Shown: in pieces, positions 2,884 to 50,471 of the stretch | Position numbering within the stretch: position 1 is the stretch's first letter | Layout: each line of letters opens with the position of its first letter | Assembly: GCA_963781585.1 (NCBI GenBank) | Contig: CAWAGQ010000004.1 | Span: 992,001 to 1,056,000, forward strand | Origin: an uncultured Gemmatimonadaceae bacterium | GTDB lineage: Bacteria > Gemmatimonadota > Gemmatimonadetes > Gemmatimonadales > Gemmatimonadaceae | Direction of reading: 5' to 3' | Length of the DNA: 64,000 nt | Position numbers and translations under genes: made by a program | The notes under the pieces: model-generated | What the model was told of the DNA's origin: nothing | Seen by the model: only the letters and a program-made list of their open reading frames with translations | Databases searched by the model: none

Positions 2884-2948
2884 GAGCCGCCAGCTGGAGC
2901 GCGCGCCGGCGCGATGCCGTGGACGACCCTAGCCGGAGAACCGAGCTC

Positions 2949-3560: not shown

Positions 3561-3576
3561 CGCCTGCGATCGCAAC

Positions 3577-3610
3577 GGCGGGGCGCGCCACCACGCTGCG
3601 CGCCGCCGCC
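3577..3610. terminator. GC-rich hairpin between convergent sodA and permease genes
   Basis: GGCGG-GGCGCGC pairs with GCGCGCC-(G)-CCGCC, a 12-bp stem with one bulge. No U tract. Confidence 0.45.
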
Positions 3611-3623
3611 TGACGCTGCCGCG

Positions 3624-30977: not shown

Positions 30978-30982
30978 TGGTC

Positions 30983-31705
30983 TCAGCTCAGGATCGCGGC
31001 GCTCGCGCTCTGCGGCCCAGCCAGATACTGGCGCGCGAACTGGTGGTCCGCCCGGGCAGCCTGCGGCGACCCGAGTTCGTGCGTGGTGCCATCCGTGCAC
31101 CAGGTAACCTGGTCGGCCGCGGCAAAGAGAACCTCGACCTCATGTCCGGTGATCACCACCGCGCAGCCGGCGCGCGCGAGATCGCGGAATACCTTCGTCA
31201 GCACTTCCGCGTCCAGTGGAGCAATGCCGCGCAGCGGCTCATCCGCCAAGAGCCACCTCGGACGGCGTAGCACGGCGGCGGCCACTTCCGCGCGGCGCCG
31301 CTCGCCACCGGACAACTGGCCGGGACGCTTGTCGAGGAAGGGCTCGAGACGCAACGACTCCACCACCGGCGCGATGTCCTGAACCGACGACATGTGCGCG
31401 ATGACTCCGAGTTGCTGCGCCAGGGTGACGTGGCGGAGGAGGAGGTGGAACTCGGGCAGGTAGAACACACCGCGCTTCGCCATCTGGTGAAGACGCGGCC
31501 GCTCGAGCCGCTCGCTCCCGATCCGCACGGTGCCGCCATCCGCGTGGAGCATGCCGCAGGTGATCTGGAGAAGCGTCGACTTCTCCGCTCCGTTGCGCCC
31601 GACCAGAGCACGCACCTGACCGGGCACCGCGCGCAACGTGGCTGCGCTCAGCACCCACCGCGCGCCGAAGCGCTTTCCCACGCTGTCCGACACCAGGAGT
31701 GCCAT
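30983..31705 (-). CDS. ABC ATP-binding protein (LptB-like) with altered Walker A
   Basis: GRNGAEKST, YLPE, LSGGERRRAE, LADEP, ITGH. Confidence 0.85.
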   Translation of the reverse strand: MALLVSDSVGKRFGARWVLSAATLRAVPGQVRALVGRNGAEKSTLLQITCGMLHADGGTVRIGSERLERPRLHQMAKRGVFYLPEFHLLLRHVTLAQQLGVIAHMSSVQDIAPVVESLRLEPFLDKRPGQLSGGERRRAEVAAAVLRRPRWLLADEPLRGIAPLDAEVLTKVFRDLARAGCAVVITGHEVEVLFAAADQVTWCTDGTTHELGSPQAARADHQFARQYLAGPQSASAAILS

Positions 31706-33232: not shown

Positions 33233-36200
33233 TCAGCGCTCGAACAGCCACTCGTCCTTGAGCACGTCCACCGTCTTGGTCTGACTCATCCCCCCCACGG
33301 TGAGCGTCACCGCGTAGGTGCCCGGATCCACAGCACCGAACCCACCGAATCCGCCGCCTCGCCCACCACCACCGCCCCCACCACCACCCTGCGGCGGATT
33401 GGGCGCGAGATTCCACAGCACGCGGTTGATGCCGGCGTCCTTGGTGCCATCGAGGGCCCTGATCTCGCGACCGGTGGCGTCCTTGATAGTGATCTTCACG
33501 TCCCCCGACGCCGGTGTCTTGAGGTAGTAGCTGATGTACGTGCCGCGCGGCGGATTCGCACCCGAAAACACCTTCTGTCCGCCACCTTGCGACCCCAGCC
33601 GGCGGTCGTTCAGCCACGCCACCGCCGGCCGAACGTCGAACAGTGTCACGTCCGCGGATTGCACCGCTGGGGTCAGCTGCTGGAGCGGCGTGATGTCATC
33701 GGCGATCCACACGCCTCGCCCGTGCGTGGCCACGATCAGGTCCCCATCGCGCGGATGAATGAAGATGTCGTCGGTGCGCACGGTGGGATAATCGTTCATG
33801 AACTTCTTCCACGATTTGCCAGCATCGGTGGAGAGATAGAGGCCAAACTCGGTCCCGACGTACAGCAGATCCTTGTTCTTCGGATCTTCCTTCACGACCT
33901 GGATGTTGCCGTACGCCGGAAGATCGTTGGCGATGCTCTGGAAGGTCGCGCCGAAGTCGTGCGTGACGTAGAGATACGGTCTGAGATCATCGCTCCGGTG
34001 TCCGTCCACCGACACGTACGCCGTCGCCGAGTCGAAGTGCGAGGCGTCCACTCGCGAAATCCAGTACATGTTGCCGCGCGGCAGTCCCGGGAGGTTCTTT
34101 CCAACCTCGGTGAACGACACGCCCCCGTCACGCGTGACCTGCAGATTGCCGTCGTCGGTGCCGGCCCATACGATGCCAGGCTTCACCGGCGATTCGGAGA
34201 CCGTGATGATCGTGCTGTACTCGCTGAGGCCGTCGTTCTTCGACAGCATCGTCAGGTTCCCTTTCATCCCCATGATCTCGGCGTCATTGCGATCGTACTG
34301 CTTCGTGAGATCCGGGCTGGCGATCCAGGTGTCGCCACGATCGTACGACTTGAAGAGCCGGTTTCCGCCCAGCCAGAGCACCTGGGGATTGTGCGGCGAG
34401 ATGATGTAGGGCGTGTTCCAGTTGAAGCGGTACTGCTCGGTGGGCGGCAGGTTGATGACGTTCGAGCGCCCCCCGGCTCCACCACCGCCCCCGCCCCCGC
34501 CCCCACCGCCCCGCCCGCCGACGCCACGTGGTTTGATGCTGGGCGAGCGACCGGTCGCCACTTCGATGCGGTTGACGTTGCCGTCCTGTGACTCCGCGTA
34601 GATCACGTTGAAGTCTGTGGGATCCACGGCCGTGTAGAAACCGTCGCCGCCGCCAATGCGGAACCAATCGCTGTTGAGGATTCCGTTTCCGCTGCGACGC
34701 ATCGACGGTCCGGCCCAGCTGCCGTTGTCCTGGAGCCCGGTGTAGACCCAGTAGGGGTGCCCCATGTCAGCCGTCACCACGTAGGAGAGCGCCGTCGCCA
34801 TGGTATTCACGTAGTCCCAGGTCTTCCCCTGATCCCACGAGATATCCAGGCCCCCATCGTTGCCGATCATCAGGTGATTCGAGTTCTTCGGATCGACCCA
34901 GATGGCATGCTGATCGACGTGTCCGGGAGAGTCGTTCCCGCCGGCGTCATCGAGAGTGGCGAACGTCTTGCCGCCATCGACCGACTTGGCCACTGGAAGC
35001 CCGGCCACATAGATGATGTCCGGGTTCATTGCGTCGACGCGCAGTTGGCTGAAGTACATCGGCCGCGCATCGCAATTTGTGATGAGGCGGAACGACCCCC
35101 CGGCGTTGTCCGACCGGAAGACGCCGCCCCGCGACAGATCGAGCTTCGGCGGCGTCTGCGGCTCCGCCGGCGCCGCTTGCTGTCCGCCACGTCCGCCGCC
35201 CCGCCCGAAGCCGTGCGTCGGACCGCCATTGTTACACCAATCGAATCCGCCCCGTCCACCGCCGCCCCCGCCACCACCACCACCACCGCCGCCCGCCCGC
35301 CCAGCGCGACCCGCCGCGCCCGGCTGATTCGCGGGCTGGGGCGGCGGCGCACCGCCACGACCACGGCCGGCGTCGGGAGTCCCCGTCACACCCGCCTCGA
35401 CCTGCACGTACACGATATTCGGATTCGACCGTGAGACATCCAGGGCAATGCGCCCGTAGGTCACGCCCGTCGGAAGGCCGCTGGTGAGCTTGTTCCAGGT
35501 ACGCCCCGCGTCCGTCGATTTCCAGACTGCGCTCCCGGGCCCTCCCCCGTTGAAGCAGCACGTGGTGCGGCGGCGCTGATAGCTGGAGGCGTAGAGCACA
35601 CTCGGATTCGCGTGATCGATTGCGATGTCGTTGAAGCCGGTGTCCTCATCGATGTACTTCACCTTCGTCCAGGTCCTGCCGCCGTCGGTGGACTTGTAGA
35701 TGCCGCGATCCGGACTGGAACCGAACAGATGGCCCGGCGAGGCCACGTACACCGTCTCGGGATTCCGCGGGTCGATGACGATGCGCGCGATCGTCTGCGT
35801 CTCCCGCAGCCCCATCGGCTGGAAGGTCTTCCCGCCATCGGTCGTCTTGTAGAGGCCGGCGCCGAACGACGACGTCTGGCGATTGTTCGGCTCGCCCGTT
35901 CCCACGTACACGATGTTCGGGTTGGTCGGATGAATCGCGATGTCGCCGATCGACGCGACCTCGTAGGTCTGGAAGACCGGCTCGAACGTCGTGCCGTTGT
36001 TTTCCGACTTCCATACACCGCCCACGGCGTATCCGAGATAGATGATGTTCGGATTCGACTCGGACACGGCGATGTCGTCGAGGCGCCCCCCCATGCCGGC
36101 GGGCCCGACGTTGCGGAATCGGAACGACTTCAGCAGGGGATCGGAAGACTGATTGAACATGGGGCCGGACTCTTCCTGTCCACCACCGCGTCCCTGCGCG

Positions 36201-36271
36201 GCAAGCCCGGTCGCGCCCACCAGGAGCGCCGAGAGAGTGCAGAGCGAATACCGCCGAAGTCCGCTGTCCAT
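33233..36271 (-). CDS. Secreted BNR/Asp-box repeat (VPS10/sortilin-like) beta-propeller protein
   Basis: Signal peptide, FRNVGPAGMGGR, many (S/T)xDGGxT(W/F) Asp boxes, GNDGG, GLQDNG, ATHGRG, Gly-rich inserts. Confidence 0.92.
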   Translation of the reverse strand: MDSGLRRYSLCTLSALLVGATGLAAQGRGGGQEESGPMFNQSSDPLLKSFRFRNVGPAGMGGRLDDIAVSESNPNIIYLGYAVGGVWKSENNGTTFEPVFQTYEVASIGDIAIHPTNPNIVYVGTGEPNNRQTSSFGAGLYKTTDGGKTFQPMGLRETQTIARIVIDPRNPETVYVASPGHLFGSSPDRGIYKSTDGGRTWTKVKYIDEDTGFNDIAIDHANPSVLYASSYQRRRTTCCFNGGGPGSAVWKSTDAGRTWNKLTSGLPTGVTYGRIALDVSRSNPNIVYVQVEAGVTGTPDAGRGRGGAPPPQPANQPGAAGRAGRAGGGGGGGGGGGGGRGGFDWCNNGGPTHGFGRGGGRGGQQAAPAEPQTPPKLDLSRGGVFRSDNAGGSFRLITNCDARPMYFSQLRVDAMNPDIIYVAGLPVAKSVDGGKTFATLDDAGGNDSPGHVDQHAIWVDPKNSNHLMIGNDGGLDISWDQGKTWDYVNTMATALSYVVTADMGHPYWVYTGLQDNGSWAGPSMRRSGNGILNSDWFRIGGGDGFYTAVDPTDFNVIYAESQDGNVNRIEVATGRSPSIKPRGVGGRGGGGGGGGGGGAGGRSNVINLPPTEQYRFNWNTPYIISPHNPQVLWLGGNRLFKSYDRGDTWIASPDLTKQYDRNDAEIMGMKGNLTMLSKNDGLSEYSTIITVSESPVKPGIVWAGTDDGNLQVTRDGGVSFTEVGKNLPGLPRGNMYWISRVDASHFDSATAYVSVDGHRSDDLRPYLYVTHDFGATFQSIANDLPAYGNIQVVKEDPKNKDLLYVGTEFGLYLSTDAGKSWKKFMNDYPTVRTDDIFIHPRDGDLIVATHGRGVWIADDITPLQQLTPAVQSADVTLFDVRPAVAWLNDRRLGSQGGGQKVFSGANPPRGTYISYYLKTPASGDVKITIKDATGREIRALDGTKDAGINRVLWNLAPNPPQGGGGGGGGGRGGGFGGFGAVDPGTYAVTLTVGGMSQTKTVDVLKDEWLFER

Positions 36272-37744: not shown

Positions 37745-37918
37745 TCAGAATTCGCGGCGCTTCATCTCGCGGAACATGCGTTGTATTTCGCCCGTCTCGT
37801 CCTGGTTCCGACGCGTCGCATCGAGCGTCGCATCGTACGTTCGGGACCGGTTGGTCTGTACCCTGGCCGCCCTCGCTGCGTTTTTCCGTGCCAGCGCCTC
37901 GAGCTTCTTCTGGTTCAT
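37745..37918 (-). CDS. Small basic hypothetical protein, 57 aa (below the ORF-track cutoff)
   Basis: MNQKKLEALARKNAARAARVQTNRSRTYDATLDATRRNQDETGEIQRMFREMKRREF*. ATGA overlap with the TerB-family stop, AAAGGAG upstream, fills the gap. Confidence 0.75.
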   Translation of the reverse strand: MNQKKLEALARKNAARAARVQTNRSRTYDATLDATRRNQDETGEIQRMFREMKRREF

Positions 37919-38403
37919 GACCCTTCTGCTCCTTTTTGCGGAGTCCTTTGGGTAGCAGCCGCTGCCTTGGCTGCTGAAAGATAGCCGGGTTCGAGCTCGA
38001 GAAGGTTGGCGATCTTCCGCGTGAGGTATTGCTCATGCTCGGCAATCTTCCCGTCGGCCAGAACCAGCCCCCACATCACCTCGGCCAGTACCATCTTCTG
38101 ACCAAGGTCATAGCGCTTCTGTAACATCGACGTGAAGTGAAAGTGGTCGATCGACTTCCGCCGTTCGGCGTCGGCGATTTCGATGAGGCGTCGGCCGGCT
38201 TCCGGCTCCAACCCGAAGTGGCGCTCCAGAACGGCGTCGAGATGGGCGCGTTCTGGGGCCGTGAACTCGCCATCCGCGTACGCCACTTCGAGCAGCAGCG
38301 CGCAGGCCGCCAGATGGAGAGGATCGACGTCGGGATCGGGGGACGCGGTCGGTGCGGCGTCCTTACGCGGGGCAATCAGGGATCGAATCTGGTCCAGGAT
38401 CAT
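37915..38403 (-). CDS. TerB-like (tellurite resistance family) protein
   Basis: ACALLLEVAYADGEF..E, MWGLVLADG..EHE..L.RKIANLL; GGAGG RBS. Confidence 0.88.
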   Translation of the reverse strand: MILDQIRSLIAPRKDAAPTASPDPDVDPLHLAACALLLEVAYADGEFTAPERAHLDAVLERHFGLEPEAGRRLIEIADAERRKSIDHFHFTSMLQKRYDLGQKMVLAEVMWGLVLADGKIAEHEQYLTRKIANLLELEPGYLSAAKAAAATQRTPQKGAEGS

Positions 38404-38496
38404 TCCTGCCTCCAGTCGTTTGGGAGCGGCGAGGAGAGAGGCCCGTGGCCGCCTGCCGGCAGCCGCGCGCGCCGCCTATCGCAAGGTACTGCACTG

Positions 38497-38510
38497 TGAC
38501 AAGGGTGTCA
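38497..38510. promoter_or_regulatory. Candidate operator TGACA-N4-TGTCA upstream of the aldolase operon
   Basis: Perfect 5-bp inverted repeat in the divergent intergenic region, about 80 nt before ATG 38591. Short, so may be chance. Confidence 0.3.
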
Positions 38511-38590
38511 GCACGCGAAGACATCGGTTGCCGCGCCCGCGTTACTCGTGCTTCTTTGTTGCCGCCTCGTCACTCGTCGGAGCGCACGCG

Positions 38591-39271
38591 ATGTCGCAAA
38601 CCGGGAAACCAGGATTCCGGATTCTCCCCGCCCCGCCGCGGCTGAGCACTGATGTGGTGGAGCGCTTTCGCGGCTTCGCGAGTTCCAATCTGGCCGATGC
38701 GATGGGGCGCTTCCGGTACATGGACCCGGGGATTCAGTCCCGGAGCGGCCGGTCGCTTTGCGGAATCGCCCTGACCGCCCTCTGCCGTCCAGCGGATAAC
38801 CTCATGGTCCACAAGGCGCTCGCGGTGGCCGCTCCGGGCGACGTCGTGGTAGTGAACACCGGCGGCAACCTCACGAGCGCGGTGTTCGGTGAGCTGATGT
38901 GTCACACCGCCATGGGAGCGCGGTTGGGCGGGATTGTGGTGGACGGCGCGATCCGGGACGTGGAGGGCATTACAGAGCTGGGCCTCCCGGCCTTCAGCCG
39001 AACCGTGAGTCCCGGAGGCTGCGACAAGGATGGACCCGGCGAGATCAACGTGCCCGTGTGCTGCGGCGGCACCGTCGTCTCCCCGGGCGACATCATCGTG
39101 GGCGACGGCGACGGAATCGCCGTGGTGCCACGCGAGCTCGCCATGGAGATCCTGGATCTCGTCGGCGCTCTGCAGGCGCGCGAGCGCGATCGGGTCGCGG
39201 AGATTCGCGCCGGCGCCCTGTTCCGGGCCGAGATCGACGAGACCTTGCGCCGCAAGGGCGCGATCGAATGA
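38591..39271 (+). CDS. RraA family / 4-hydroxy-4-methyl-2-oxoglutarate aldolase-like protein
   Basis: SNLADAM, ADNLMVHKAL, AVFGELM, VDGAIRD (catalytic Arg/Asp), GEINVPV, PGDIIVGDGDG. Confidence 0.9.
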   Translation: MSQTGKPGFRILPAPPRLSTDVVERFRGFASSNLADAMGRFRYMDPGIQSRSGRSLCGIALTALCRPADNLMVHKALAVAAPGDVVVVNTGGNLTSAVFGELMCHTAMGARLGGIVVDGAIRDVEGITELGLPAFSRTVSPGGCDKDGPGEINVPVCCGGTVVSPGDIIVGDGDGIAVVPRELAMEILDLVGALQARERDRVAEIRAGALFRAEIDETLRRKGAIE

Positions 39272-40422
39272 ACCCGGACCCCGCGTCCCTGGTGCTGATG
39301 ACACCGGGACCGACGCGCGTGCCCGAGCGCGTCCTGCGCGCCGGAGCCCGGCCCATGCTGCACCACCGCACGCCGGAGTTCTCACGGGAACTGGCCGCGG
39401 TCCTCGAGCTGCTCGCTCCGGTATTCGGCACCGCCGGGCGTGTGCTGCCGGTGCACACCACCGGTCGCGGTGCGATGGAAGCCACGATCTGCAACCTCTT
39501 CTCGCCCGGCGAGGAGATCGCAGTCTGCTGCAATGGCAAGTTCGGCGAGATGTGGGCGTCGTTCGCGGAATCGTACGGCCTCGTGGTGCATCGCTTCGCG
39601 CGAAGCTGGCACGAGGACATCGATCCTCTGGAGCTGGAGCACGCGTTCGACGAACATCGGCGCCTGAAGGCCCTGGCCCTGGCCTTCGGCGACACCTCCA
39701 CCGGCGTGTGCAATGACGTCGAGGCGGCCAGCCGCATCGCTCACGCCCGCGGCGTCCTGGTGCTCGTGGACGGCGTATCGTCGTTAGGCGGCATGCCGTT
39801 CGCTTTCGACGCCTGGGGTGTGGATGTCGCCATCACGGCTTCACAGAAGTGCCTGATGTCGGCGCCGGGACTGTCATTCGTCGCGGTCAGCGAGCGGGGC
39901 TGGGCGGCGGTCGCGCGGTCGCGACTCCCCCGCAACTACTGGGACTTCCGTGCGATTCGCGACGAGGTGTCCAAGCCGCGGCCGGAAACCCCCGGAACGA
40001 CGCCCGTGCACATCGTCCTGCAGGTGGCCGAGGCACTCCGGATGATGCACGAGGAGGGACTCGCCGCCGTCTTCGCGCGTCACGAGAGCATGGGCGCGCG
40101 CACCCGCGAAGGCGTGGCGGCTCTCGGACTCTCACTGCAGTGCGGCACCCTGCGGCGCCTGTCGCCCACGCTCACGGCGGTCGCGCTGCCGACCTCGATC
40201 GCGCCACGGGCCCTGCGTGACGCGATGAAGGAACGCGGCATTCTCACCGCTGCCGGACTGGGCCCGTTCGCCACCACGGCCTTCCGAATCGGCCACATGG
40301 GAGACATCCGCCTCGCCGACGTGGAACGGACGCTGGACGTCCTGGCACAGGTACTCCCTGCCACGCGTGAAGCGACAGCATCAGCCCCCGCGCCCGGCGC
40401 CCGCGGCGTGCCGGCCGAGTGA
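39268..40422 (+). CDS. Class V PLP aminotransferase (serine/alanine-glyoxylate type)
   Basis: MTPGPT, HHRTPEF, DTSTGV, VDGVSS, ASQKCL (PLP Lys), FRIGHMG. ATGA overlap. Confidence 0.93.
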   Translation: MNPDPASLVLMTPGPTRVPERVLRAGARPMLHHRTPEFSRELAAVLELLAPVFGTAGRVLPVHTTGRGAMEATICNLFSPGEEIAVCCNGKFGEMWASFAESYGLVVHRFARSWHEDIDPLELEHAFDEHRRLKALALAFGDTSTGVCNDVEAASRIAHARGVLVLVDGVSSLGGMPFAFDAWGVDVAITASQKCLMSAPGLSFVAVSERGWAAVARSRLPRNYWDFRAIRDEVSKPRPETPGTTPVHIVLQVAEALRMMHEEGLAAVFARHESMGARTREGVAALGLSLQCGTLRRLSPTLTAVALPTSIAPRALRDAMKERGILTAAGLGPFATTAFRIGHMGDIRLADVERTLDVLAQVLPATREATASAPAPGARGVPAE

Positions 40423-41672
40423 AGCTGCATACCAGCATCCTCCTTGGCCTGGTGGCCGGGGCCGCGGTGGGCGGCGCGGCTCGCCTTGCCGGGGCGCCGC
40501 TGCAGCGCGCGGTGTTGCTCGCCGAGCCGCTCGGCACGGCGTTCATTCGACTGGTTACGATGGTCGTGGTTCCGCTGGTCATCGCCAGCCTGTTCGTCGG
40601 AGTCGCTTCACTCGGGGATGTGCGCCGCCTGGGACAGATCGGCGGTCGCAGTCTGGGCTGGTTTCTCGCGACGACCGTGGCAGCCGCGACAATCGGCCTC
40701 GCTACGGCGCTGGTGCTTCATGTCGGTCGAAATGCGCCGGCTGTAGCGTTCGCCAGCCAGGCAGCCAACGGCGCAGACGCGCCCGATGGTGTGAGCGCAG
40801 CCGGACTTGGCAAGGCGCTGCTGGCTCTCATCCCGCAGAATCCGTTTGCCGCCGCGGCGCAGGCCGATCTGCTCCCACTGATCGTCGCGGTGTGCCTGTT
40901 CGCGGCCGCGGCAACCGCGATCGGCGAGGAGCGTCGTCGGCCGCTGCTGTCCTTCTTCGAGAGCGTGAACGACGTGGCGATGGTGCTGATTCGCTGGCTG
41001 ATGGCACTCGCGCCGGCCGCAGTCCTGGTACTCATCGCCGCGACGGTCGCACGGTCGGGGCTGGCGATGCTGCGGAGTCTGTTGTGGTACGCGGTCGTGG
41101 TCGTTATCGCGTTAGGCATTCACGTCGGCGCGGTACTGCTGCCGCTGCTGCGGGCGCGCGCCGGGCTGGGGGTGGGCGGGTTCCTGCGTGCCGTGGGCGA
41201 TGCGCTGCTGCTTGCCCTGTCGACCGCCTCGTCGAGCGCGACCCTGCCGGTGAGCATGGCCGCGGCGCGGGACCGCCTTGGCATTCCCAACGAAGTGGCG
41301 AGTTTTCTGCTTCCCGCGGGTACGACCCTGAACAAGAACGGGGCCGCGGTTTACAAGGCCGTCACCGCGGTGTTCCTGGCGCAGGTCTACGGCCTTCACC
41401 TCGACCCGGTGCGGCTCGGCGTCATTCTGATCACCGCCTCCGTGGCCGCCTTTGCCGGGGCCGGCGTACCTGGAAGCTCCCTCGTCACGACCCTCATCGT
41501 GCTCAACGCGATCGGACTCGGTCCACGCGCGGCGGCCGGCATCGCGTTGGTCACGGGCATCGACCGGCCGCTCGACATGTGTCGCACCACCGTCAACACG
41601 CTCGGCAACCTGGTTGGTGCCGCGGTTGTCGCCCGCCGCCACCAGGGCACACCCGAGTCCGGGCGGAGGTGA
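40419..41672 (+). CDS. Dicarboxylate/amino acid:cation symporter (DAACS)
   Basis: LIPQNPF, STASSSATLP, GTTLNKNG, AGVPG, DRPLDMCRTTVN. GTGA overlap. Confidence 0.93.
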   Translation: MKLHTSILLGLVAGAAVGGAARLAGAPLQRAVLLAEPLGTAFIRLVTMVVVPLVIASLFVGVASLGDVRRLGQIGGRSLGWFLATTVAAATIGLATALVLHVGRNAPAVAFASQAANGADAPDGVSAAGLGKALLALIPQNPFAAAAQADLLPLIVAVCLFAAAATAIGEERRRPLLSFFESVNDVAMVLIRWLMALAPAAVLVLIAATVARSGLAMLRSLLWYAVVVVIALGIHVGAVLLPLLRARAGLGVGGFLRAVGDALLLALSTASSSATLPVSMAAARDRLGIPNEVASFLLPAGTTLNKNGAAVYKAVTAVFLAQVYGLHLDPVRLGVILITASVAAFAGAGVPGSSLVTTLIVLNAIGLGPRAAAGIALVTGIDRPLDMCRTTVNTLGNLVGAAVVARRHQGTPESGRR

Positions 41673-41676
41673 ACGA

Positions 41677-42945
41677 GTGGTATCGGCCAAGACGATTTCC
41701 GAGAAGATCCTTTCGATCAAGTCTGGCTCCGACGCGCGGGCTGGCGACGTGGTGGTCTGTGTGACCGATCAGGTCATCGGCACCGACGCCTCCGCACCGA
41801 TGGCGATCGACTACTTCGAGCAGATGGATGGTGACCGCCTGTTCGACGCCTCGCGGGTGATGTTCGCGCTCGACCATTACGCACCGCCGACGTCGCCGGT
41901 CACCGCGTCGTACCATGCCCGGGTCCGGGAATTTGCCGCCCGGTTCGGTGCCGAGGTGCGTGAGGTGGGCGAGGGCATCAGTCATCAGGTCGCCGCCGAA
42001 AGCGGGCGGGCGCTCCCGGGCAACCTGATCGTGGGTGCCGACAGCCACACGGTGGGATGTGGGGCGCTCAACCTCTTCGCAACAGGTGTCGGCTCCTCCG
42101 ATCTGGCGGCCGCCATGCTCACCGGGCAGATCTGGTTGCGGGTGCCGGACTCGGTCCGGGTCGTGCTGTCAGGACGGCGTGGGCCCGGCGTGGCCGCCAA
42201 GGACGTGGGCCTCGCGCTCATTGCCGCACTCGGCGCCGACGGTGCCAACTACCGGGCGCTGGAATTCCATGGCGAGGCGTTAGGCGGCTTCACGCTCGAA
42301 GAACGGGTCGTGCTGTGCAATCTCGCGGTGGAGACCGGCGCCAAGGCGGCCATCTGCCCCGTGGATCAGGAGACGCACGAGTACCTCGCCGGCCGGACGA
42401 CCGATCTCGGCCGCCCGGTGCACGCCGACGCCGGCGCCCGGTATGTCCGCGAAGTCACCCTCGACGTGTCGAACGTGGCACCGCAGCTGGCGGTCCCACA
42501 TGCACCGGACCGGGTGGTACCGCTGGACGCAGCCGCTGGAACGCCGGTGCACATGGTGTTCATCGGGACCTGTACCGGCGGCCGCGTGGCCGACATTCAC
42601 GATGCGCTGCGGGTGCTCGAGCGCGGTGGCGGACGCCTCGCGCCCAACGTCCAGCTCGTCGTAACGCCGGCCTCGCGCGAAGTCTTCCTCCGCCTCATCG
42701 AGGATGGCTCGCTCGGCCGACTCGCGGCGCTTGGCGCGGTCATTACCACGCCCGGCTGCGGCGCCTGCTGCGGCACCAGCGGCGTGGTCCCGGCCGATGA
42801 CATGGTCGTGCTGTCGACCGCCAATCGCAATTTCCGGGGTCGGATGGGGAATTCCTCGGCCGCCATCTATCTCGCGTCCCCGGCCGCGTGCGCCGCTGCC
42901 GCCGTCACGGGGCGGATCACCGATCCGCGTACCGTACACGTCTGA
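41677..42945 (+). CDS. Aconitase-family hydro-lyase large subunit (LeuC/HacA-like)
   Basis: KTISEKIL, DH, GISHQ, GADSHT, three [4Fe-4S] Cys in GTCTGGR and GCGAC, STANRNF.GRMG, YLASP; GGAGG RBS. Confidence 0.92.
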   Translation: MVSAKTISEKILSIKSGSDARAGDVVVCVTDQVIGTDASAPMAIDYFEQMDGDRLFDASRVMFALDHYAPPTSPVTASYHARVREFAARFGAEVREVGEGISHQVAAESGRALPGNLIVGADSHTVGCGALNLFATGVGSSDLAAAMLTGQIWLRVPDSVRVVLSGRRGPGVAAKDVGLALIAALGADGANYRALEFHGEALGGFTLEERVVLCNLAVETGAKAAICPVDQETHEYLAGRTTDLGRPVHADAGARYVREVTLDVSNVAPQLAVPHAPDRVVPLDAAAGTPVHMVFIGTCTGGRVADIHDALRVLERGGGRLAPNVQLVVTPASREVFLRLIEDGSLGRLAALGAVITTPGCGACCGTSGVVPADDMVVLSTANRNFRGRMGNSSAAIYLASPAACAAAAVTGRITDPRTVHV

Positions 42946-42946
42946 G

Positions 42947-43498
42947 ATGGCCACGCATCTGCGGGCGCGCGCTCGCGTGTTGGGCGACAACGTCAACAGT
43001 GATTACATCATCGCGTCCACGCGGAAGCGCGATTCCCTCGATACGGAGGTCCTCAAGCAGTACCTGCTCGAAGCGGTGGACCCTTCCTTCGCGCAGTCCG
43101 TTCGCGCGGGCGACGTCCTGGTCGCCGGCGAAAACTTCGGCTGCGGTTCGGCAATGGAGGTCGCCGCGACCGTCATTCTGGCTGCGGGAATTCGCGTGGT
43201 CCTGGCACGAAGCTTTGCTCGCGCCTTCTTCCGCAACGCCGTCAATAACGGGCTGGTGCCACTCGAGTGCGACACCGCCGGCATCGCCGAAGGCGACCGC
43301 CTGACGATTGATCTGATGGGCGGAGATGCGCGGGTCACCAATCTCACACGCAACCTGGCGATCGAGGCGGCCAGTCTTCCCGCCATTGCACTTCGGATCC
43401 TCGATGCCGGCGGGCTGGTGGCGTTCCTGCGTGCGCAACCGGGACACTCGTTCACCGCATCCACCACCGGCGAGCATCCGCGGCGGACGCCGGACTGA
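42947..43498 (+). CDS. Aconitase-family hydro-lyase small subunit (LeuD/HacB-like)
   Basis: GDNVNSDYII, GENFGCGSAME, SFARAFFRNAVNNG, ILDAGGL. Confidence 0.9.
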   Translation: MATHLRARARVLGDNVNSDYIIASTRKRDSLDTEVLKQYLLEAVDPSFAQSVRAGDVLVAGENFGCGSAMEVAATVILAAGIRVVLARSFARAFFRNAVNNGLVPLECDTAGIAEGDRLTIDLMGGDARVTNLTRNLAIEAASLPAIALRILDAGGLVAFLRAQPGHSFTASTTGEHPRRTPD

Positions 43499-43649: not shown

Positions 43650-45104
43650 CTACGCCGAGCGATGCCCTTCCTGTCCGGACGCGGCCTTCATGTCGTAGAG
43701 CATCAGATCTGCGGTGGACAGGAGCGCCTCGGCGGTCGCCCCGTCGCGAGGGTAGACGGCGTAGCCAGCGCTCACGGTCACGCGGGGAGACTGGCCATCG
43801 CTCTCCAGGGCGGCCGCGATTCGGGCTGTCACGTGGTACGCGGCATTATCATCAGCCTCCGGCAGCACCAGCGCGAACTCATCGCCCCCGTAGCGCGCCG
43901 CGGTGTCGATCGTGCGACACGTTGTCCGCATCGCATCGGCTACCCGGCACAGCGCCTTGCTGCCTGTCAGATGGCCGTGACGATCGTTGATGTCCTTGAG
44001 GCGATCCAGATCGAGGAGCAGGACCGCGAAGGACCGCTTCGTTCGCGCCGACCGCTGAATCTCCTGCTCCAGCACGTCCAGCAGCTGGCGATAGTTCGAC
44101 AGCCCGGTGAGCGCGTCGGTTACCGCCAGTCGTCGCAATTGCCCTTCCACGCTCTCCCGCTCGGCGACCACGCTGGCGAGCACCAGGCTGGTCAGCGCAT
44201 TCACGCCGGTAAAGACCTGAAGCAGCACCAGACTCTCGTTGAGCGTGCCGGTGACGAACGGGCCGCGACCGTGCACCGTCCCCCAGGTGGCGATCCCGGA
44301 GACGACCAGCACCGCGGTGGCAGCCTCGCGGCGTCCGAACCGATATGCCGCCCAAAGCAGCAGGGGCATGCACAGGAATTCGAGGGGGAAACTCGAACCC
44401 TGGTCGCCAGGGAGTCCGCCAAACACAAAGAGCGCGACCGCGGCAAGGGAGACCAGCAGGGCGAGCGCCTCGAGCCACTGGTATACGGTCCACTGCACTC
44501 GAGGACGGGCGAGCCACAGGAGCAGAAGCGGCGCGATGACGATGTCTCCGCCTGCGTCACCCAGCCACCAGGTGGTCCAGATGGACCAGAATTCGTGCCA
44601 TTGTGCAAGTCCGCCGAGGGCGAGCGTCGTCACGCCCACGGTGGCGCTCACCATCGTGCTCGCTATCGCCGCGTAGAACACGAGCCTGACGATGTACGAC
44701 GCCCGTTCAACCGCGTGTCGCCCACCCGCGAATCGCTGGAGGAGCGCCGCACCAACCAGGGCCTCGAGCGTGTTTCCGGTCGCGATTCCAAGCGACGTCG
44801 CCACGCCTCCGGCAGTCAGCAGGCTGGCGATGAATGCGCCCAGAAACACGCCCGGCCAGGGACGCGGACCGAAATAGAGCAGGGCCGCGAGCGCGATGCC
44901 GGAGGCTGGCCAGACCGCGGTCGCACTGGCATTGACCACGGCAAACTGCAGGCCGAAGCGTGCCGCGACGAAATACACGAGCGCCAGCGCCATGCAGGCC
45001 GCCAGAAGTTGGTGCGCACGCCACAGCCGGGGGCCGGCGGGGGGCGCGTTCGTGTCACCAAGCGTGCTATTCTCGCCTGCGGGAGCGGCCAAGGATGTCG
45101 CCAT
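43650..45104 (-). CDS. MASE1-domain diguanylate cyclase
   Basis: MASE1 (VWPASG, WWLGD), DALTGL, KDINDRHGH, RTID (RxxD I-site) then RYGGDEF. Confidence 0.95.
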   Translation of the reverse strand: MATSLAAPAGENSTLGDTNAPPAGPRLWRAHQLLAACMALALVYFVAARFGLQFAVVNASATAVWPASGIALAALLYFGPRPWPGVFLGAFIASLLTAGGVATSLGIATGNTLEALVGAALLQRFAGGRHAVERASYIVRLVFYAAIASTMVSATVGVTTLALGGLAQWHEFWSIWTTWWLGDAGGDIVIAPLLLLWLARPRVQWTVYQWLEALALLVSLAAVALFVFGGLPGDQGSSFPLEFLCMPLLLWAAYRFGRREAATAVLVVSGIATWGTVHGRGPFVTGTLNESLVLLQVFTGVNALTSLVLASVVAERESVEGQLRRLAVTDALTGLSNYRQLLDVLEQEIQRSARTKRSFAVLLLDLDRLKDINDRHGHLTGSKALCRVADAMRTTCRTIDTAARYGGDEFALVLPEADDNAAYHVTARIAAALESDGQSPRVTVSAGYAVYPRDGATAEALLSTADLMLYDMKAASGQEGHRSA

Positions 45105-45428: not shown

Positions 45429-47195
45429 TTATCGGGGCGCCGTGTCGTCCCGCGCCGGCCGCTCCGGCGCCAGGCGTTCCGGAGTCAGCGCCTCAGGAAG
45501 CTCCTCCGGCGCAATCACACCCCGCCCAACCAGCTCCAATGCGCGATTCCGCATCGGGACCAGCCCCGCCGCCAGCGCCGCATCGCGCAACTCGTTGAGG
45601 GCAAGCCGGCGCGCGATGGCGCGACGCACCGCCGAGGTCGCGTCGAGGTACTCGACCAGCGCGATCCGGCCGTGACTCCCGACCCCGCCGCATCGGCTGC
45701 ACCCGGTTCCGCGGAATGCGGTGAACCCGGGCGGCACACCGTCCGGGAAGATCTCGCCTAACAAGTCTGCGTCCGCAGTGTGCGGCGCCCGACAGCCGTC
45801 GCAGATTCGCTTGGCCAGCCGCTGCGCGAACACGGCAGCCAACTCGCTCGCGATCGAATTGGGATGCATGCCCAAGTCCAGCAGGCGCTGCACGGCGTCG
45901 ATCGCGTCATTGCCGTGGAGCGTAGAGAGGACCAGGTGTCCGGTCTGCGACGCCCGCAGCGCCTCGAGTGCCGTTTCCCCGTCCCGGATCTCGCCCACCA
46001 GAATGACGTCAGGATCCTCCCGCACGAAGGCGCGCATGGCGTTGGCGAACGTGAACCCGACTTCGGGCAGCACCTGCGATTGCTGTACGCCGTCGATCGC
46101 ATACTCGATCGGATCCTCGACCGTGATCACCTTGCGTGTGGTCTCCCCTGCCAGCACCTGCAGGCCCGCATAGAGCGTTGTCGATTTGCCCGATCCGGTC
46201 GGACCCACCACCAGCACCAGTCCTCCCGGGCTGTCGAGCAGACGCCGGTACGCGCGTGCCAGATCCTCCGGGAAACCGAGGTCCGGGATGGAAAGGAGGT
46301 TCGTATCCTGCGCCAGCAGGCGCAGCACCAGGTGCTCTCCGTGCAGCGACGGCTGGGTCTGCGCGCGCACGTCGAACTGCCGATCTCCCATGCGGACGCT
46401 GAAGCGGCCTCCCTGAGGCGCGCGGTGCTCGGCGAGATCCATCCTGGCGCGCACCTTCGCGACGCTGACGACCGAGACCGCCTGCGCAACGGTGAGCCGG
46501 TAGTGCGCCAGGTCGCGAAGATCGCCGTCGACGCGGATGCGTACCCGAACCTGCTCGCCGTAGACTTCAAGGTGTACGTCGCTGGCGCGCTCGGCGATGG
46601 CATCGAGCAGAATGGCCTGGAACAGCTCCTGAATTGGTGCCGAGAGGTGATGGTCTGCCGCGAGGAGGTTCGGCGTGGAGACCGACGCGGCCTGATCCCC
46701 GCGGGAATCGACCGGCATGGCGAGGTCGAGCGAGAGCCGGAGGCGACGATAGTCGGTGGGCGTGATGAGGACGATCTCGATCTCGCGCAGGCCGACCGCC
46801 GACGCCAGTTCGGGAGGGAACGCTTCCGGCTCCGACGATGCGACGATCAGGCGCCCGGCCGCGATAGCCAACGGCACCAGATGGTGGTATTCCCGAAACT
46901 GGCGGGAGATGCGTGCGACGACCTCACGATCGACGATCGGCAGCAGGTCGGCGACATCGGCAAAGCGCAGCTCGTGCAGGATCGCGAGCTGCTGATACAC
47001 GTCGCGCTCCTCGGCCATCCCCTGTTCCGTGAGGATCTCACCGATGCGGCGGCGCACACGCCGAGCGAGCGCGGCCGCCTGCTCGACGTCCTCACGCGAC
47101 GCAATGCCCGCCTCGACAATCAGGTCGCCCAGACGCCTGTCGAGCCGCTTCTGCCTCAGCGCGATCGTCTTCTCAGGCGCCTGGTCGGCGGACAT
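45429..47195 (-). CDS. GspE/PilB family secretion ATPase with N-terminal MshEN motif
   Basis: RLGDLIVEAG and RIGEILTEQG, ASDVHLE, GPTGSGKSTT, EDPIE, DPDVILVGEIRD, TGHLVLSTLH, CxxC...CxxC. Confidence 0.93.
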   Translation of the reverse strand: MSADQAPEKTIALRQKRLDRRLGDLIVEAGIASREDVEQAAALARRVRRRIGEILTEQGMAEERDVYQQLAILHELRFADVADLLPIVDREVVARISRQFREYHHLVPLAIAAGRLIVASSEPEAFPPELASAVGLREIEIVLITPTDYRRLRLSLDLAMPVDSRGDQAASVSTPNLLAADHHLSAPIQELFQAILLDAIAERASDVHLEVYGEQVRVRIRVDGDLRDLAHYRLTVAQAVSVVSVAKVRARMDLAEHRAPQGGRFSVRMGDRQFDVRAQTQPSLHGEHLVLRLLAQDTNLLSIPDLGFPEDLARAYRRLLDSPGGLVLVVGPTGSGKSTTLYAGLQVLAGETTRKVITVEDPIEYAIDGVQQSQVLPEVGFTFANAMRAFVREDPDVILVGEIRDGETALEALRASQTGHLVLSTLHGNDAIDAVQRLLDLGMHPNSIASELAAVFAQRLAKRICDGCRAPHTADADLLGEIFPDGVPPGFTAFRGTGCSRCGGVGSHGRIALVEYLDATSAVRRAIARRLALNELRDAALAAGLVPMRNRALELVGRGVIAPEELPEALTPERLAPERPARDDTAPR

Positions 47196-47204: not shown

Positions 47205-50200
47205 TTACCCTCCGGCGGCAGGCGAATGGTCGGACACAGCGTTCGTCCGCTGCGGAGGCGGCTCGTCGGTCGTCGGGACGATCTCGGGAAGTCCGGCCGC
47301 CTTGAGCATGGCGTTCAGGCGACCGAGGAACGCATCCACGTTCTTCTTGTATCGGGCGAGCTCCCGGTCGAGTTTCGGCGACAACGTGTTGAAGACCTCG
47401 TATGCCTGCGGGGGCGGCCGCCGTTCGCCGTTACTCACGAAACCCATCAGTGCCGCAAGCTGGTTGTTCACGCGTACCGGGAAGTTGAGTGGATCCTCAC
47501 CGCTCTTGTTCTTCGTCTGGTAGATGGAGTCTTCGACCGCGCTCAGACTGTCGGCAAACGTCGTGGCGAGCGGCGCGAACGCCGCGACCGCCGCCATCTT
47601 CGGTGTGCGGTCATCGAGCTGCCGTTTGACGCTGCGAATTCGCTTGACGGCGTCGTTGGCCTCGGTGACCCGGTCGCGTAGCTGCAGCGCGAACCGCGTC
47701 TGCTCGGCGAGATCGGCGTCGGTGGCGCTCGCTCGCGGGTCGCGGCGAACCACGAGCGGTGCCGACAGCGGCGCGGCGTCGCCGACCGTGAGCCGCACGG
47801 TGTAGGTCCCCGGCGCGATCGCCGGGCCGGTGACTCCGCCCGCCCAGAAGATCATCCCCTGAAAGCTCGATGCGTCGGGGTAGCGCATGTTCCATTGATA
47901 CTGATTGACGCCGAGCCGCGTGGTGACCCGCGCCGCACCGGCGCCACCAAATCGCCCGCCGCCTCCGCGCCCGCCGACGCCCTGCGGCACCGAATCCGTG
48001 GACGAGTATTTCCGGACGAGCTTGCCTGTCGGATCGAGGAATTCAACAGTCACCGGCTGTGAGTCCTGCGCGAGGCGATACATCACGGTGGCGCTCGCGT
48101 TGCCGGCGCGGGTGACCGGCGCCGGCTTGTAGAGGAAGTTCTTCCCCTGCGCAGCCGCCACTTCCGGTGCCTGACGCAGCTCGGTCAGGTTCTCCATCAC
48201 CCAGAACGCCCGCCCGTGCGTGGCGATCACCATGTCGTCATCGCGCAGAGCGATGTCGTGTACCGGGACGGGCGGGAGGTTGCGCTGCAGGCTCTGCCAG
48301 TTGCGGCCGTCGTTGTACGACACCCACACGCCGCGTTCGGTGGCCGCGTACAGCAGACCTGGACGGACCAGGTCCTCGCGTACGGCGCGCGTGAACTCGG
48401 TCGGCGTGATCCCGTCAGTGATTTTCGTCCAGGTTGCTCCGTAGTCATGCGTCTTGTACAGGTACGGCGCGAAGTCGTCCAACTGGTATCGATTCGCCGC
48501 CACGTACGCCGTAGCCGGGTCATGCGGCGACGGGTCGATGATCGAGATGCGCGTCCACTCGGGCAGCCCTTTCGGTGTGACGTTCTTCCAGCTCTTGCCG
48601 CCGTCCCGGGTCAGGTAGATGAGCCCATCGTCCGAGCCTGTCCAGATCAACCCGGGCGTGACCGGTGACTCCTGGACGGCGAAGATCGTGGCGTAGTACT
48701 CGATAGACGTCTGATCCTTCGTGATGGGCCCACCCGACGGACCGAGCGTCGCGGGATCGTGCCGCGTGAGATCCGGCGAAATCACCGACCAGGTCTTCCC
48801 GTCGTTCGACGACTTGAAGAGCACGTTGGATCCCACGTACAGGACGTGCGGATCGCGCGGCGAGTTCATGATCGGGTACGTCCACTGGAAGCGGTACTTC
48901 GAATCCTTCGCGTCGTGGCCCATCGGGTTGAGCGGCCAGGGGTCCAGCCGCTCGCTCAGCCCGGTCCGGCGATTCTGCATCTCGAGCACGCCGCTGTAGT
49001 TGCCGCCGTAGGTGATTTCGGGATCGAGCGGATCGGAGGCGATGTAGCCCGACTCGCCGCCCGCAACACCGTAGAAGTCGGAATACTGCGGTCCGGACGT
49101 CGTGCCACCGCGCCCGCCGCGGCCTCCCCCGCCACCACCCCGTCCGAATCCGCCGGCCGCTCGCACCGGGCCGCACGACGATCCGGCATCCTGCTTGGCC
49201 CCGCACACGTGATATGGAACGTGATTCGTGAGGTGTACGTGGTAGAATTGCCCGGTCGGCGCCGCCACCCGGATCGACGATGAGCCGCCGTCGGTGGTGA
49301 TGATCGCCCCGTTGTCGTGCGCCACGGCGATCCGCTTCGGGTCGTCGGGCGCGATCCACACGTCATGATTGTCGCCGCCGCCGAACCCGCGCGCGAAGGT
49401 CTTGCCGCCATCCTTCGACCACATCGGTCCCACGTTAGGCGCTGCAAGGACGTTCGTGTCCTTCGGGTCGGCGTAGATGTTCGAGTAGTACCAGGCCCGC
49501 TGGCGCAGATCGCGGTCGCCATTCATGAAGGTCCAGGTCGCCCCGCCGTCGGCCGATCGGTAGATGCCGCCGTTCGGCTCATGCTCGATCAGCGCCCACA
49601 CCAGGTTCGACTTCACCGGCGACACCGCGACGCCGATGCGTCCCAGAACTCCCGACGGGAGCCCGGGGTTGTGCGTGATCTCCGTCCAGTGTTCCCCACC
49701 ATCGGTGGTCTTGAAGATGCCGCTCCCGGCCCCGCCGCTGATGAGCAACCACGGTTTCCGCCCGGCCTGCCAGAACGCGGCGTACAGCACCTCCGGATTC
49801 GTCGGATCCATGACCAGATCGCTGATGCCGGTGGAGTCGTTCCGGAACAGCACCTTGCGCCAGGTTCTGCCACCGTCGGTGGTCTTGAAAACGCCGCGCT
49901 CCGGATTCGGTCCCCACACATGTCCGAGCGCACCGACGTACACAATGTCCGGATTGGTGGGGTGGACACGGACCCTCGCAATCTGTTGCGTCTCTCGGAG
50001 ACCCAGGTAGCTCCAGGTCTTTCCACCGTCCGTGGTCTTCCAGACACCCTCGCCATGGGACACGTTTCCGCGGATCGGCGATTCGCCGCCCCCCACGTAC
50101 ACGATGTCGGGATTGCTCTCGCTCACAGCGATCGCCCCGATGGTCCCGCCGAAGTACTTGTCGGTAACTGGTGTGAGGGTCGTGCCACCATCCGTTGTCT

Positions 50201-50471
50201 TCCACACGCCGCCACCGGTTGTGCCGAAGTAGTACTCCCTGGGTCTCGCCGACGAACCCGCTACCGCAGCCATCCGGCCCGCGCTGTTCGGGCCGATGCT
50301 TCGCCACTGCAGGCTGCCCCACAGCGCGGTGTCGACGGGGACCGCGACCTGCGTCGCGGCGGATATCTGCCGGCCGACGGACGATCCGGTGGGTCGCTGC
50401 TGTGCCACAAGGGCACCGGGCACAGCGCAGGCGACGGCCAGTGCTCGCGAGAGGAGGGTCGGTCGATTCAC
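47205..50471 (-). CDS. Secreted BNR/Asp-box repeat (VPS10/sortilin-like) beta-propeller protein with helical C-terminal tail
   Basis: Signal peptide, WRSIGP..AGR, repeated TTDGGxTW, QRAWYY, YRFQW, ATHGR, EDPLNFP. Confidence 0.93.
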   Translation of the reverse strand: MNRPTLLSRALAVACAVPGALVAQQRPTGSSVGRQISAATQVAVPVDTALWGSLQWRSIGPNSAGRMAAVAGSSARPREYYFGTTGGGVWKTTDGGTTLTPVTDKYFGGTIGAIAVSESNPDIVYVGGGESPIRGNVSHGEGVWKTTDGGKTWSYLGLRETQQIARVRVHPTNPDIVYVGALGHVWGPNPERGVFKTTDGGRTWRKVLFRNDSTGISDLVMDPTNPEVLYAAFWQAGRKPWLLISGGAGSGIFKTTDGGEHWTEITHNPGLPSGVLGRIGVAVSPVKSNLVWALIEHEPNGGIYRSADGGATWTFMNGDRDLRQRAWYYSNIYADPKDTNVLAAPNVGPMWSKDGGKTFARGFGGGDNHDVWIAPDDPKRIAVAHDNGAIITTDGGSSSIRVAAPTGQFYHVHLTNHVPYHVCGAKQDAGSSCGPVRAAGGFGRGGGGGGRGGRGGTTSGPQYSDFYGVAGGESGYIASDPLDPEITYGGNYSGVLEMQNRRTGLSERLDPWPLNPMGHDAKDSKYRFQWTYPIMNSPRDPHVLYVGSNVLFKSSNDGKTWSVISPDLTRHDPATLGPSGGPITKDQTSIEYYATIFAVQESPVTPGLIWTGSDDGLIYLTRDGGKSWKNVTPKGLPEWTRISIIDPSPHDPATAYVAANRYQLDDFAPYLYKTHDYGATWTKITDGITPTEFTRAVREDLVRPGLLYAATERGVWVSYNDGRNWQSLQRNLPPVPVHDIALRDDDMVIATHGRAFWVMENLTELRQAPEVAAAQGKNFLYKPAPVTRAGNASATVMYRLAQDSQPVTVEFLDPTGKLVRKYSSTDSVPQGVGGRGGGGRFGGAGAARVTTRLGVNQYQWNMRYPDASSFQGMIFWAGGVTGPAIAPGTYTVRLTVGDAAPLSAPLVVRRDPRASATDADLAEQTRFALQLRDRVTEANDAVKRIRSVKRQLDDRTPKMAAVAAFAPLATTFADSLSAVEDSIYQTKNKSGEDPLNFPVRVNNQLAALMGFVSNGERRPPPQAYEVFNTLSPKLDRELARYKKNVDAFLGRLNAMLKAAGLPEIVPTTDEPPPQRTNAVSDHSPAAGG

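Follow-up and report, generated by a model that had tools for sequence, protein, structure and literature searches.

The locus considered here lies in a 64,000-nt stretch of DNA (referred to below as the window) from an uncultured Gemmatimonadaceae bacterium (assembly GCA_963781585.1, contig CAWAGQ010000004.1, positions 992,001 to 1,056,000), in which five consecutive plus-strand genes at positions 38591-43498 form an operon for an RraA-like protein, a class V aminotransferase, a DAACS/SDF symporter and the two subunits of a LeuCD-type hydro-lyase (Table 1). Translation, together with Pfam and NCBIfam profile searches, confirmed that all five genes are real, and their coordinates give two successive 4-nt overlaps followed by gaps of 4 nt and 1 nt, so the genes, families and 1-4 nt junctions described in the initial annotation of this DNA stand as they were given. 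The G+C content of the window (≈ 67%) produces many spurious open reading frames (ORFs).

Table 1 Operon genes and other features of the region (positions in the window)
Feature	Position	Strand	Remarks
RraA-like protein	38591-39271	+	226 aa; PF03737, E 3e-42
Class V aminotransferase	39268-40422	+	384 aa; PF00266
DAACS/SDF symporter	40419-41672	+	417 aa; PF00375, E 8e-100
LeuC-like large subunit	41677-42945	+	422 aa; PF00330
LeuD-like small subunit, "GSAME" clade	42947-43498	+	183 aa; PF00694
Intergenic region, TerB (divergent) to RraA-like gene	38404-38590	.	187 nt; promoter/regulatory role presumed only
TerB, upstream neighbour	37915-38403	-	unrelated to operon
MASE1-GGDEF, downstream neighbour	43650-45104	-	unrelated to operon
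T2SSE-type secretion ATPase	45429-47195	-	unrelated to operon
Sortilin/Vps10-BNR repeat protein	33233-36271	-	unrelated to operon
Sortilin/Vps10-BNR repeat protein	47205-50471	-	unrelated to operon
Second SDF paralogue	29679-31100	-	

The hydro-lyase pair can be placed at the subfamily level only: the LeuC-like protein passes the models PRK00402, hacA_fam and IPMI_arch and the LeuD-like protein passes LEUD_arch, and every NCBIfam equivalog model was failed. The 3-isopropylmalate dehydratase equivalogs gave 376.5 bits against a cut-off of 610.65 (LEU2) and 179.1 against 560.25 (leuC), those for the small subunit gave 122 against 245.85 (leud) and 47 against 116.25 (leuD), and the methanogen homoaconitase equivalogs gave 346 against 550 (HacA_Meth) and 121.5 against 230 (HacB_Meth). 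The core of the aconitase superfamily is present, since the LeuC-like subunit keeps the three Cys residues of the cluster, D-S-H-T and N-R-N-F-x-G-R. At the same time, the small subunit carries GSAME in all 12 orthologues, while the eight other LeuD proteins of Gemmatimonadota all carry GSSRE or GSSRQ. PMC7308503 assigns substrate binding to GSSRE, a motif that aconitases and all small subunits have conserved, and attributes specificity to a flexible loop of the small subunit. The first Ser of the motif, which PMC8184944 gives as the equivalent of the aconitase general base, is retained in GSAME. The specificity loop reads D-Y-I-I-x-S-x-R-K-R, where the homoaconitase subunit 2pkp has YLRT and the isomerase subunit 3vba has YLVY; when its R-K-R-D is aligned to Y-L-R-T of 2pkp, only the Arg matches, and the loop is not that of a homoaconitase. 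The S, R, K and R of the loop, as well as S-A-M-E, are invariant in an 11-sequence alignment with 35-45% identity.

Changes near the active site extend to the large subunit, where T-D-(A/G)-S replaces (S/T/C)-H-(E/D) and C-G-x-C-C-G replaces C-G-x-C-L-G throughout the clade; C-T-G-G-R for C-T-N-G-R is shared by the close orthologues and most of the divergent loci, with the exception of L075, L076, L090 and L095. SAME was present in 45 of the best 150 representatives retrieved from 1.84 billion proteins, and in a quick tree calculated without bootstrap, all 26 full-length GSAME rows fell inside one 29-row clade (SH-aLRT 91), the remaining three rows of which likewise lack the Arg. The protein atlas contained generic "LeuD/DmdB" clusters only. 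A plasmid match from Subdoligranulum (H8) was rejected as a member, being an ordinary LeuD with GSSRE. The pair thus resembles the archaeal-type isopropylmalate isomerases and homoaconitases (LeuCD, HacAB; 3vba, 2pkp, 1v7l) in its two subunits of about 420 and 180 aa, in the cluster Cys residues, D-S-H-T and N-R-N-F-x-G-R, and in the first motif Ser, but it differs from them in GSAME, the S-x-R-K-R loop, the additional large-subunit changes, the lack of a leuA/leuB or lysine-pathway context and the constant linkage to an RraA-like gene. As judged from these features, it is a divergent [4Fe-4S] hydro-lyase and not a leucine enzyme.

The genomic context agrees with the absence of leuA, leuB and lysine-pathway genes from the window, which the initial annotation had already pointed out. 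In the 5.7-Mb source genome (93.5% complete), no HMGL-like gene, i.e., neither LeuA nor homocitrate synthase, was found anywhere, and LeuA, IlvB and IlvC taken from L058, a Gemmatimonadota leu/ilv operon, had no tblastn match; both Iso_dh genes lie outside the window, one encoding an NADP isocitrate dehydrogenase and the other an isocitrate-dehydrogenase-like protein. The leucine-pathway genes are therefore probably absent from the genome, its completeness falling short of proof. The LeuCD of the true leu operon L058 is a different one, only 42% identical. The operon pair is the only LeuCD-type pair of the genome, the only other aconitase-family gene being a 984-aa aconitase-type ORF, and the initial annotation had counted such a sole pair, in combination with complementation of an E. 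coli leuCD mutant, as a refutation; the sole status formally applies, but it leaves the catabolic reading standing, given that the searches for LeuA, IlvB and IlvC were negative as well and that GSSRE is lacking. As a separate observation, an organism with no detectable homologue of LeuA, IlvB and IlvC may depend on external branched-chain amino acids. A LeuC-like match to an archaeal-type query at E ≤ 1e-60 was obtained in only 34 of 301 sampled Gemmatimonadota genomes.

A scan of the genome collection returned ten loci with a LeuC 59-69% identical to that of the operon, nine from Gemmatimonadota and one from Vicinamibacterales. The order RraA-like protein, class V aminotransferase, DAACS carrier, LeuC-like and LeuD-like subunit was kept in 12 of the 14 loci that could be judged (with the window included; L015 and L055, which are the same DNA, counted once; L013 and L019 cut by contig ends), and this recurrence shows that the arrangement is not due to chance. 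No conserved flanking gene or regulator was found beyond the five genes in the Gemmatimonadota loci. The initial annotation had called for a synteny survey and had staked its reading on conservation of the cluster elsewhere; the cluster is indeed conserved, both in these 12 close loci and in other phyla.

In Cupriavidus campinensis (NZ_CP043441.1), a divergent LysR gene is followed by genes for a Bug/TTT-type binding protein, a LeuC (48% identical), a LeuD of the GSAME type, a class I, aspartate-transaminase-like aminotransferase (PRK06107, 612.8 bits against a cut-off of 617) and an RraA-like protein that passes PRK06201 (261.9 bits against 231). A GSAME LeuD was also found in Eubacteriales (source name Muriventricola aceti). 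The scan of metagenomes returned 80 LeuD loci, 20 of them with GSAME; among loci of at least 6 kb, an RraA-like gene accompanied eight of eight GSAME loci versus none of 35 other LeuD loci, and an aminotransferase accompanied seven of the eight (five class V, two class I) versus again none of the 35. Gene order varied, from LeuCD - RraA (L092), LeuCD - aminotransferase - RraA (L085 and L087, the latter also with a GltS glutamate symporter) and RraA - aminotransferase - LeuCD - DAACS (L089) to more elaborate forms, namely GntR followed by aminotransferase - LeuC - LeuD - TAXI-TRAP - RraA (L075), IclR followed by RraA - LeuCD - aminotransferase - ABC importer - threonine-aldolase-family gene (L094), LysR followed by LeuCD - GltI-like binding protein (2ia4/2vha) - class I aminotransferase - permease - RraA (L095), and LeuD - HyuA - HyuB - RraA - class I aminotransferase - Amidohydro_2 (L080). 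Regulators of catabolic type (GntR-FCD, LysR, IclR) adjoin the module. Hydantoinase/oxoprolinase A and B genes occur in or beside the cluster in two unrelated sources (L080, 1138-4891; L070 from Cupriavidus, 1726-5450), their HyuA and HyuB products being 45% and 43% identical to each other; they are caprolactamase-like, although far below the cut-off, and accompany the form of the module with the class I aminotransferase. Their presence hints that entry could alternatively be by way of the lactam of a glutamate analogue.

The module is thus conserved and horizontally scattered, with the GSAME LeuCD and the RraA-like protein as its constant core, an aminotransferase of either class almost always beside it, and an importer and catabolic-type regulators usually so. 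The view of the five genes as a single unit held for 12 of the 14 close loci, but the aminotransferase is sometimes missing, which leaves LeuCD, the RraA-like gene and an importer as the obligate part; across the wider set of clusters, the importer was usual rather than constant.

The RraA-like protein is best matched by PRK06201, an unnamed subfamily (224.2 bits against a cut-off of 231), and its nearest solved relative is the Pseudomonas putida aldolase 3NOJ (E 5.7e-29), which acts on HMG (4-hydroxy-4-methyl-2-oxoglutarate) and on CHA (4-carboxy-4-hydroxy-2-oxoadipate). In the alignment to 3NOJ, it carries the residues characteristic of LigK/GalC/ProA (R123, D124, E199, N71 and K147), the catalytic roles of which are described, in 3NOJ numbering, in PMC5065237. 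Equivalents of N71, H75, G101, R123, D124 and K147 are kept in all 23 cluster-linked RraA-like homologues, and those of R40 and E199 in 22 of them. At the same time, the scores for the HMG/CHA aldolase equivalogs stay below the cut-offs (PRK09262, 146.6 bits against 179; ligK_PcmE, 131.2 against 304.5). The protein is thus predicted to be of the class II pyruvate aldolase/beta-keto-acid decarboxylase type.

The DAACS carrier has the aspartate transporter 9bgz as its nearest solved relative (E 1.6e-71), and its transmembrane helix 8 (TM8) sequence D-R-P-L-D-M-C-R-T-T-V-N aligns to D-R-I-L-D-M-A-R-T-T-V-N of 9bgz. The TM8 D..R motif, which is that of DAACS Asp/Glu carriers, is kept in all 14 carrier orthologues; from work on GltPh, we take the Asp to bind the amino group and the Arg to bind the side-chain carboxylate. 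The score for the GltP equivalog remains low (217.5 bits against 638), and the NMDGT motif, the sodium and substrate site of the family, is not conserved: 9bgz has N-M-D-G-T, the carrier orthologues (window 40419-41672 and those of L010-L018 and L050-L055) have N-K-N-G-A/S, and two of them have D-K-N-G-A. The replacements Lys for Met and Asn for Asp suggest that ion coupling is altered or that the substrate makes an additional contact. A second, divergent SDF paralogue, located about 9 kb upstream of the operon (Table 1), has neither the TM8 D..R motif (it reads L-I-P-D-I-F-K-T) nor a hairpin 1 (HP1) motif of the S-S-S-A-T-L-P type, and so it probably carries other cargo.

Across the linked clusters, the importers include members of glutamate/aspartate-type families, namely DAACS carriers with D..R, a GltS sodium/glutamate symporter (TIGR00210, 283 bits), a GltI-like ABC system and TAXI-TRAP, in addition to the Bug/TTT binding protein. 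The ABC binding protein matches 2ia4/2vha (E 3e-93), of which 2vha is the glutamate/aspartate-binding protein, and TAXI proteins bind glutamate or C5 dicarboxylates.

The class V aminotransferase belongs to the AGXT family, with alanine/serine-glyoxylate aminotransferases as its nearest solved relatives and an aligned S-Q-K lysine motif. Its best NCBIfam model is BhcA, with 245.3 bits, far from the equivalog cut-off of 650, and bhcBCD-type neighbours were not found in the cluster. The interchange of two non-homologous aminotransferase classes between otherwise similar modules argues that transamination is a real step.

Taken together, it appears fairly probable that the operon serves the catabolism of an imported acidic amino acid, most likely a hydroxylated or unsaturated C5 analogue of glutamate. 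We infer the substrate and all of the reactions from context; what was observed directly is which genes are present, how they are conserved, how the motifs differ and that the leucine-pathway genes looked for are absent. The DAACS carrier, with the Asp for the amino group and the Arg for the side-chain carboxylate preserved, would import the compound, and the aminotransferase would convert it to a 2-oxo-dicarboxylate. The LeuCD-type [4Fe-4S] hydro-lyase would then add or move water to give a 4-hydroxy-2-oxo-dicarboxylate of the 4-hydroxy-2-oxoglutarate or HMG type, which the RraA-like class II aldolase could cleave to pyruvate and a small carbonyl acid (glyoxylate, pyruvate or oxaloacetate), and the latter could serve as the amino acceptor in the transamination. 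In the hydro-lyase step, the proton concerned would be adjacent to the 2-oxo group rather than to a carboxylate, and this would explain why the Ser-Arg of GSSRE was lost and why a basic S-x-R-K-R loop was gained; the loop could bind the distal carboxylate in its displaced position. The motif changes would fit the replacement of one malate-type carboxylate by an oxalyl (CO-COO-) group, an argument from aconitase chemistry that is the weakest link of the scheme. Candidate substrates would include 3-hydroxyglutamate and unsaturated or 4-substituted glutamates and, where HyuAB is present, their lactams too. Of the sequence of events outlined in the initial annotation (uptake, transamination, hydration or isomerisation, retro-aldol cleavage), a conserved non-leucine operon with an importer, an aminotransferase, a hydro-lyase and an RraA-like enzyme is supported by the comparison of genomes, whereas the substrate, the order of the steps and the release of pyruvate are still conjecture.

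A number of points weigh against this scheme. The operon is sporadic in the sampled Gemmatimonadota and Acidobacteriota genomes: orthologues with at least 63% identity were found in seven of 301 genomes of the former, the own genome counted, and in the sample of the latter the single positive among 301 was the starting genome itself, with none in the 300 others. The aminotransferase is missing from two of the 14 close loci (L011 and L012) and from one of the eight long metagenome loci (L092), and the genomes of L011 and L012 (for the latter, the unpublished genome G302) hold only 31-36% identical aminotransferase paralogues, so LeuCD and RraA may suffice for some substrate. Aldol cleavage is not the sole option for the RraA-like enzyme, because the family has other activities: its members are also oxaloacetate decarboxylases and, according to PMC8563752, include one dehydratase/decarboxylase. 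The assignment of GSAME to a single clade comes from the quick tree, with neither bootstrap values nor a constrained test. A hydro-lyase would be superfluous if the substrate were simply 4-hydroxyglutamate, and the model of its action next to a 2-oxo group builds on aconitase chemistry, namely the role of Arg644.

A more specific proposal, possible but on balance doubtful, is that the GSAME LeuCD represents a new aconitase-superfamily activity on 2-oxo-dicarboxylates, giving a redox-free route to pyruvate and glycine or alanine. The enzyme would hydrate an enone of the 2-oxoglutaconate type or shift the hydroxyl group of 3-hydroxy-2-oxoglutarate to C4, its product being 4-hydroxy-2-oxoglutarate or the 4-methyl analogue. 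The aminotransferase would reuse the released glyoxylate or pyruvate as the amino acceptor, making the route self-contained. The starting compounds would be hydroxylated or unsaturated glutamate analogues, or lactams where oxoprolinase-type genes exist, and the carriers of the route would be soil Gemmatimonadota together with Betaproteobacteria and with Eubacteriales, an order that has gut bacteria among its members.

Three other reactions of the hydro-lyase were set aside on chemical grounds only, i.e., direct action on 4-hydroxyglutamate or 2-hydroxyglutarate (no activated proton), dehydration of the pentarate type (no geminal carboxylate) and direct Markovnikov hydration of 4-methylene-2-oxoglutarate.

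Among the alternatives to catabolism of a C5 glutamate analogue, a route through oxaloacetate survives best, although we regard it as unlikely. The LeuCD pair would dehydrate a 3-substituted malate with both malate carboxylates in place, such as 3-hydroxyaspartate ("3-aminomalate") or a tartrate isomer, to oxaloacetate (plus ammonia), the RraA-like enzyme would decarboxylate oxaloacetate to pyruvate, and the aminotransferase would be an accessory link between aspartate and oxaloacetate. This would accommodate the aminotransferase-free cores (L011, L012 and L092), the proximity of both aminotransferase types to aspartate enzymes (BhcA, 245-296 bits; PRK06107, 612.8 bits), the title of the nearest solved RraA relative as an aldolase/oxaloacetate decarboxylase, and the Asp/Glu-type importers; 3-hydroxyaspartate may be carried by transporters of this type. 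AcnX, which belongs to the aconitase superfamily and dehydrates a beta-hydroxy amino acid (PMC8184944), also favors it. However, the aminotransferase is present in 12 of the 14 close and seven of the eight long metagenome loci and is swapped for another class rather than lost, and C5 compounds are indicated by the GltS, TAXI-TRAP and oxoprolinase-type genes. Moreover, retention of GSSRE would be expected for a substrate that has both carboxylates of malate, and one bearing an ammonium group would give no reason for the three invariant basic residues of the loop.

A tricarboxylate (CHA/4-oxalomesaconate) version, in which LeuCD would be a homoaconitase-like hydratase, the RraA-like protein a CHA aldolase releasing pyruvate and oxaloacetate, and the imported compound an amino-tricarboxylate, is less likely still, indeed quite improbable. 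The Arg of the homoaconitase YLRT loop does align with an Arg of the R-K-R loop, the carrier has Lys for the Met of NMDGT, and in L080 an Amidohydro_2 gene, of a Pfam family that we take to include LigJ and LigI, follows the RraA-like and aminotransferase genes. Nevertheless, CHA has an intact malate core, so that the loss of GSSRE would be unexpected, and homoaconitase small subunits keep this motif (2pkp). We know of no tricarboxylate transport by the importer families linked here, and amino-tricarboxylates are rare in nature. N71 and K147, kept in all 23 homologues, are the proposed binders of the CHA C5 carboxylate in PMC5065237, but by the same source HMG cleavage is likewise crippled by N71A and K147A, so the two positions cannot tell the substrates apart.

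A housekeeping or biosynthetic role, with the pair as a leucine/lysine isomerase or with the operon starting from pyruvate and making, through aldol condensation, dehydration and amination, an unusual amino acid for export, is largely excluded and of very low probability: although the pair is the only one of LeuCD type found in the genome and its large subunit passes isopropylmalate/homoaconitate hydro-lyase subfamily models, LeuA/homocitrate synthase, IlvB and IlvC were not found at 93.5% completeness, all equivalog models failed and GSSRE is lost, the leu operon of the same phylum (L058) uses its own, 42% identical LeuCD, and related clusters have binding-protein-dependent importers and catabolic-type regulators.

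The proposed breakdown of a glutamate analogue can be compared with several known systems. Like the HMG/CHA aldolases LigK/GalC/ProA of the protocatechuate 4,5-cleavage and gallate pathways (3NOJ), the RraA-like protein of the operon has the RraA fold, the metal ligands D124 and E199, the enolate-stabilizing R123, and N71, H75 and K147, and in those pathways too a hydratase step is placed ahead of the aldolase. The differences are that the hydratase of the operon is of the Fe-S LeuCD type and not of the LigJ/GalB type, that an amino acid importer and an aminotransferase are added, and that the equivalog models failed; no ring-cleavage genes were seen among the neighbors of the operon. In the mammalian hydroxyproline route, 4-hydroxyglutamate is converted by aspartate aminotransferase to 4-hydroxy-2-oxoglutarate, which HOGA1 cleaves to pyruvate and glyoxylate, the latter yielding glycine through AGXT. 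The operon would share with it the transamination of a hydroxylated acidic amino acid, cleavage by an aldolase and glyoxylate handling by an AGXT-family enzyme, but its aldolase belongs to another fold family, an Fe-S hydro-lyase is added, and the system is bacterial with its own importer. The beta-hydroxyaspartate cycle (BhcABCD) likewise deals with acidic amino and oxo acids, and BhcA is the best model for the class V aminotransferase; however, the score is 245 against 650 bits, and genes of the BhcB, BhcC and BhcD types are lacking in the operon cluster.

Literature searches, mostly judged by listings and abstracts, found no published description of the gene set, in agreement with the initial annotation, which knew of no described pathway of this kind. 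All of the enzyme families are known, but no function is assigned to their combination or to the LeuCD clade without the conserved substrate-binding motif. Automatic annotation names such genes "3-isopropylmalate dehydratase" and "regulator of RNase E", which is misleading for such genomes and would overstate the completeness of leucine prototrophy. If the proposed catabolism is correct, the aconitase superfamily would gain a new type of reaction, the large and mostly unassigned PRK06201 group of RraA-like proteins would obtain a concrete physiological partner, and a new redox-free catabolism of acidic amino acids would be present in several phyla, in soil-type as well as Eubacteriales lineages. 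The cultured carrier C. campinensis makes the question directly testable.

With respect to the surroundings of the operon, the scan for sigma-70-type promoter consensus and terminators returned no sites, being uninformative for Gemmatimonadota, and the sequencing runs listed for the region comprise no RNA run and two DNA runs from one study, with small shares (0.08-0.09). The further opposite-strand neighbors, the T2SSE ATPase and the sortilin/BNR proteins, are unrelated to the operon. The two very large paralogous sortilin/Vps10-BNR repeat proteins (1012 aa and about 1070-1088 aa) flank the region, and the T2SSE-type secretion ATPase gene adjoins one of them.

Different LeuCD pairs, 40-43% identical and with GSSRE intact, were observed in four other Gemmatimonadota loci (L059-L062) in the row Iso_dh - short HMGL-like lyase (305-321 aa) - family III CoA-transferase - LeuC - LeuD, as established by a Pfam run for L059 and L062 and by matching gene sizes and order only for L060 and L061; this row looks like another uncharacterized catabolic cluster, perhaps for an acid of the citramalate/mesaconate type, rather than a leu operon. 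In two further Gemmatimonadota loci (L056 and L063), LeuCD-like pairs stand beside succinyl-CoA-ligase-type ATP-grasp domains (weak matches of the ATP-citrate-synthase type), together with CoA-ligase domains, the C-terminal domain of a citrate synthase and a fused aconitase-family protein of 611 aa.

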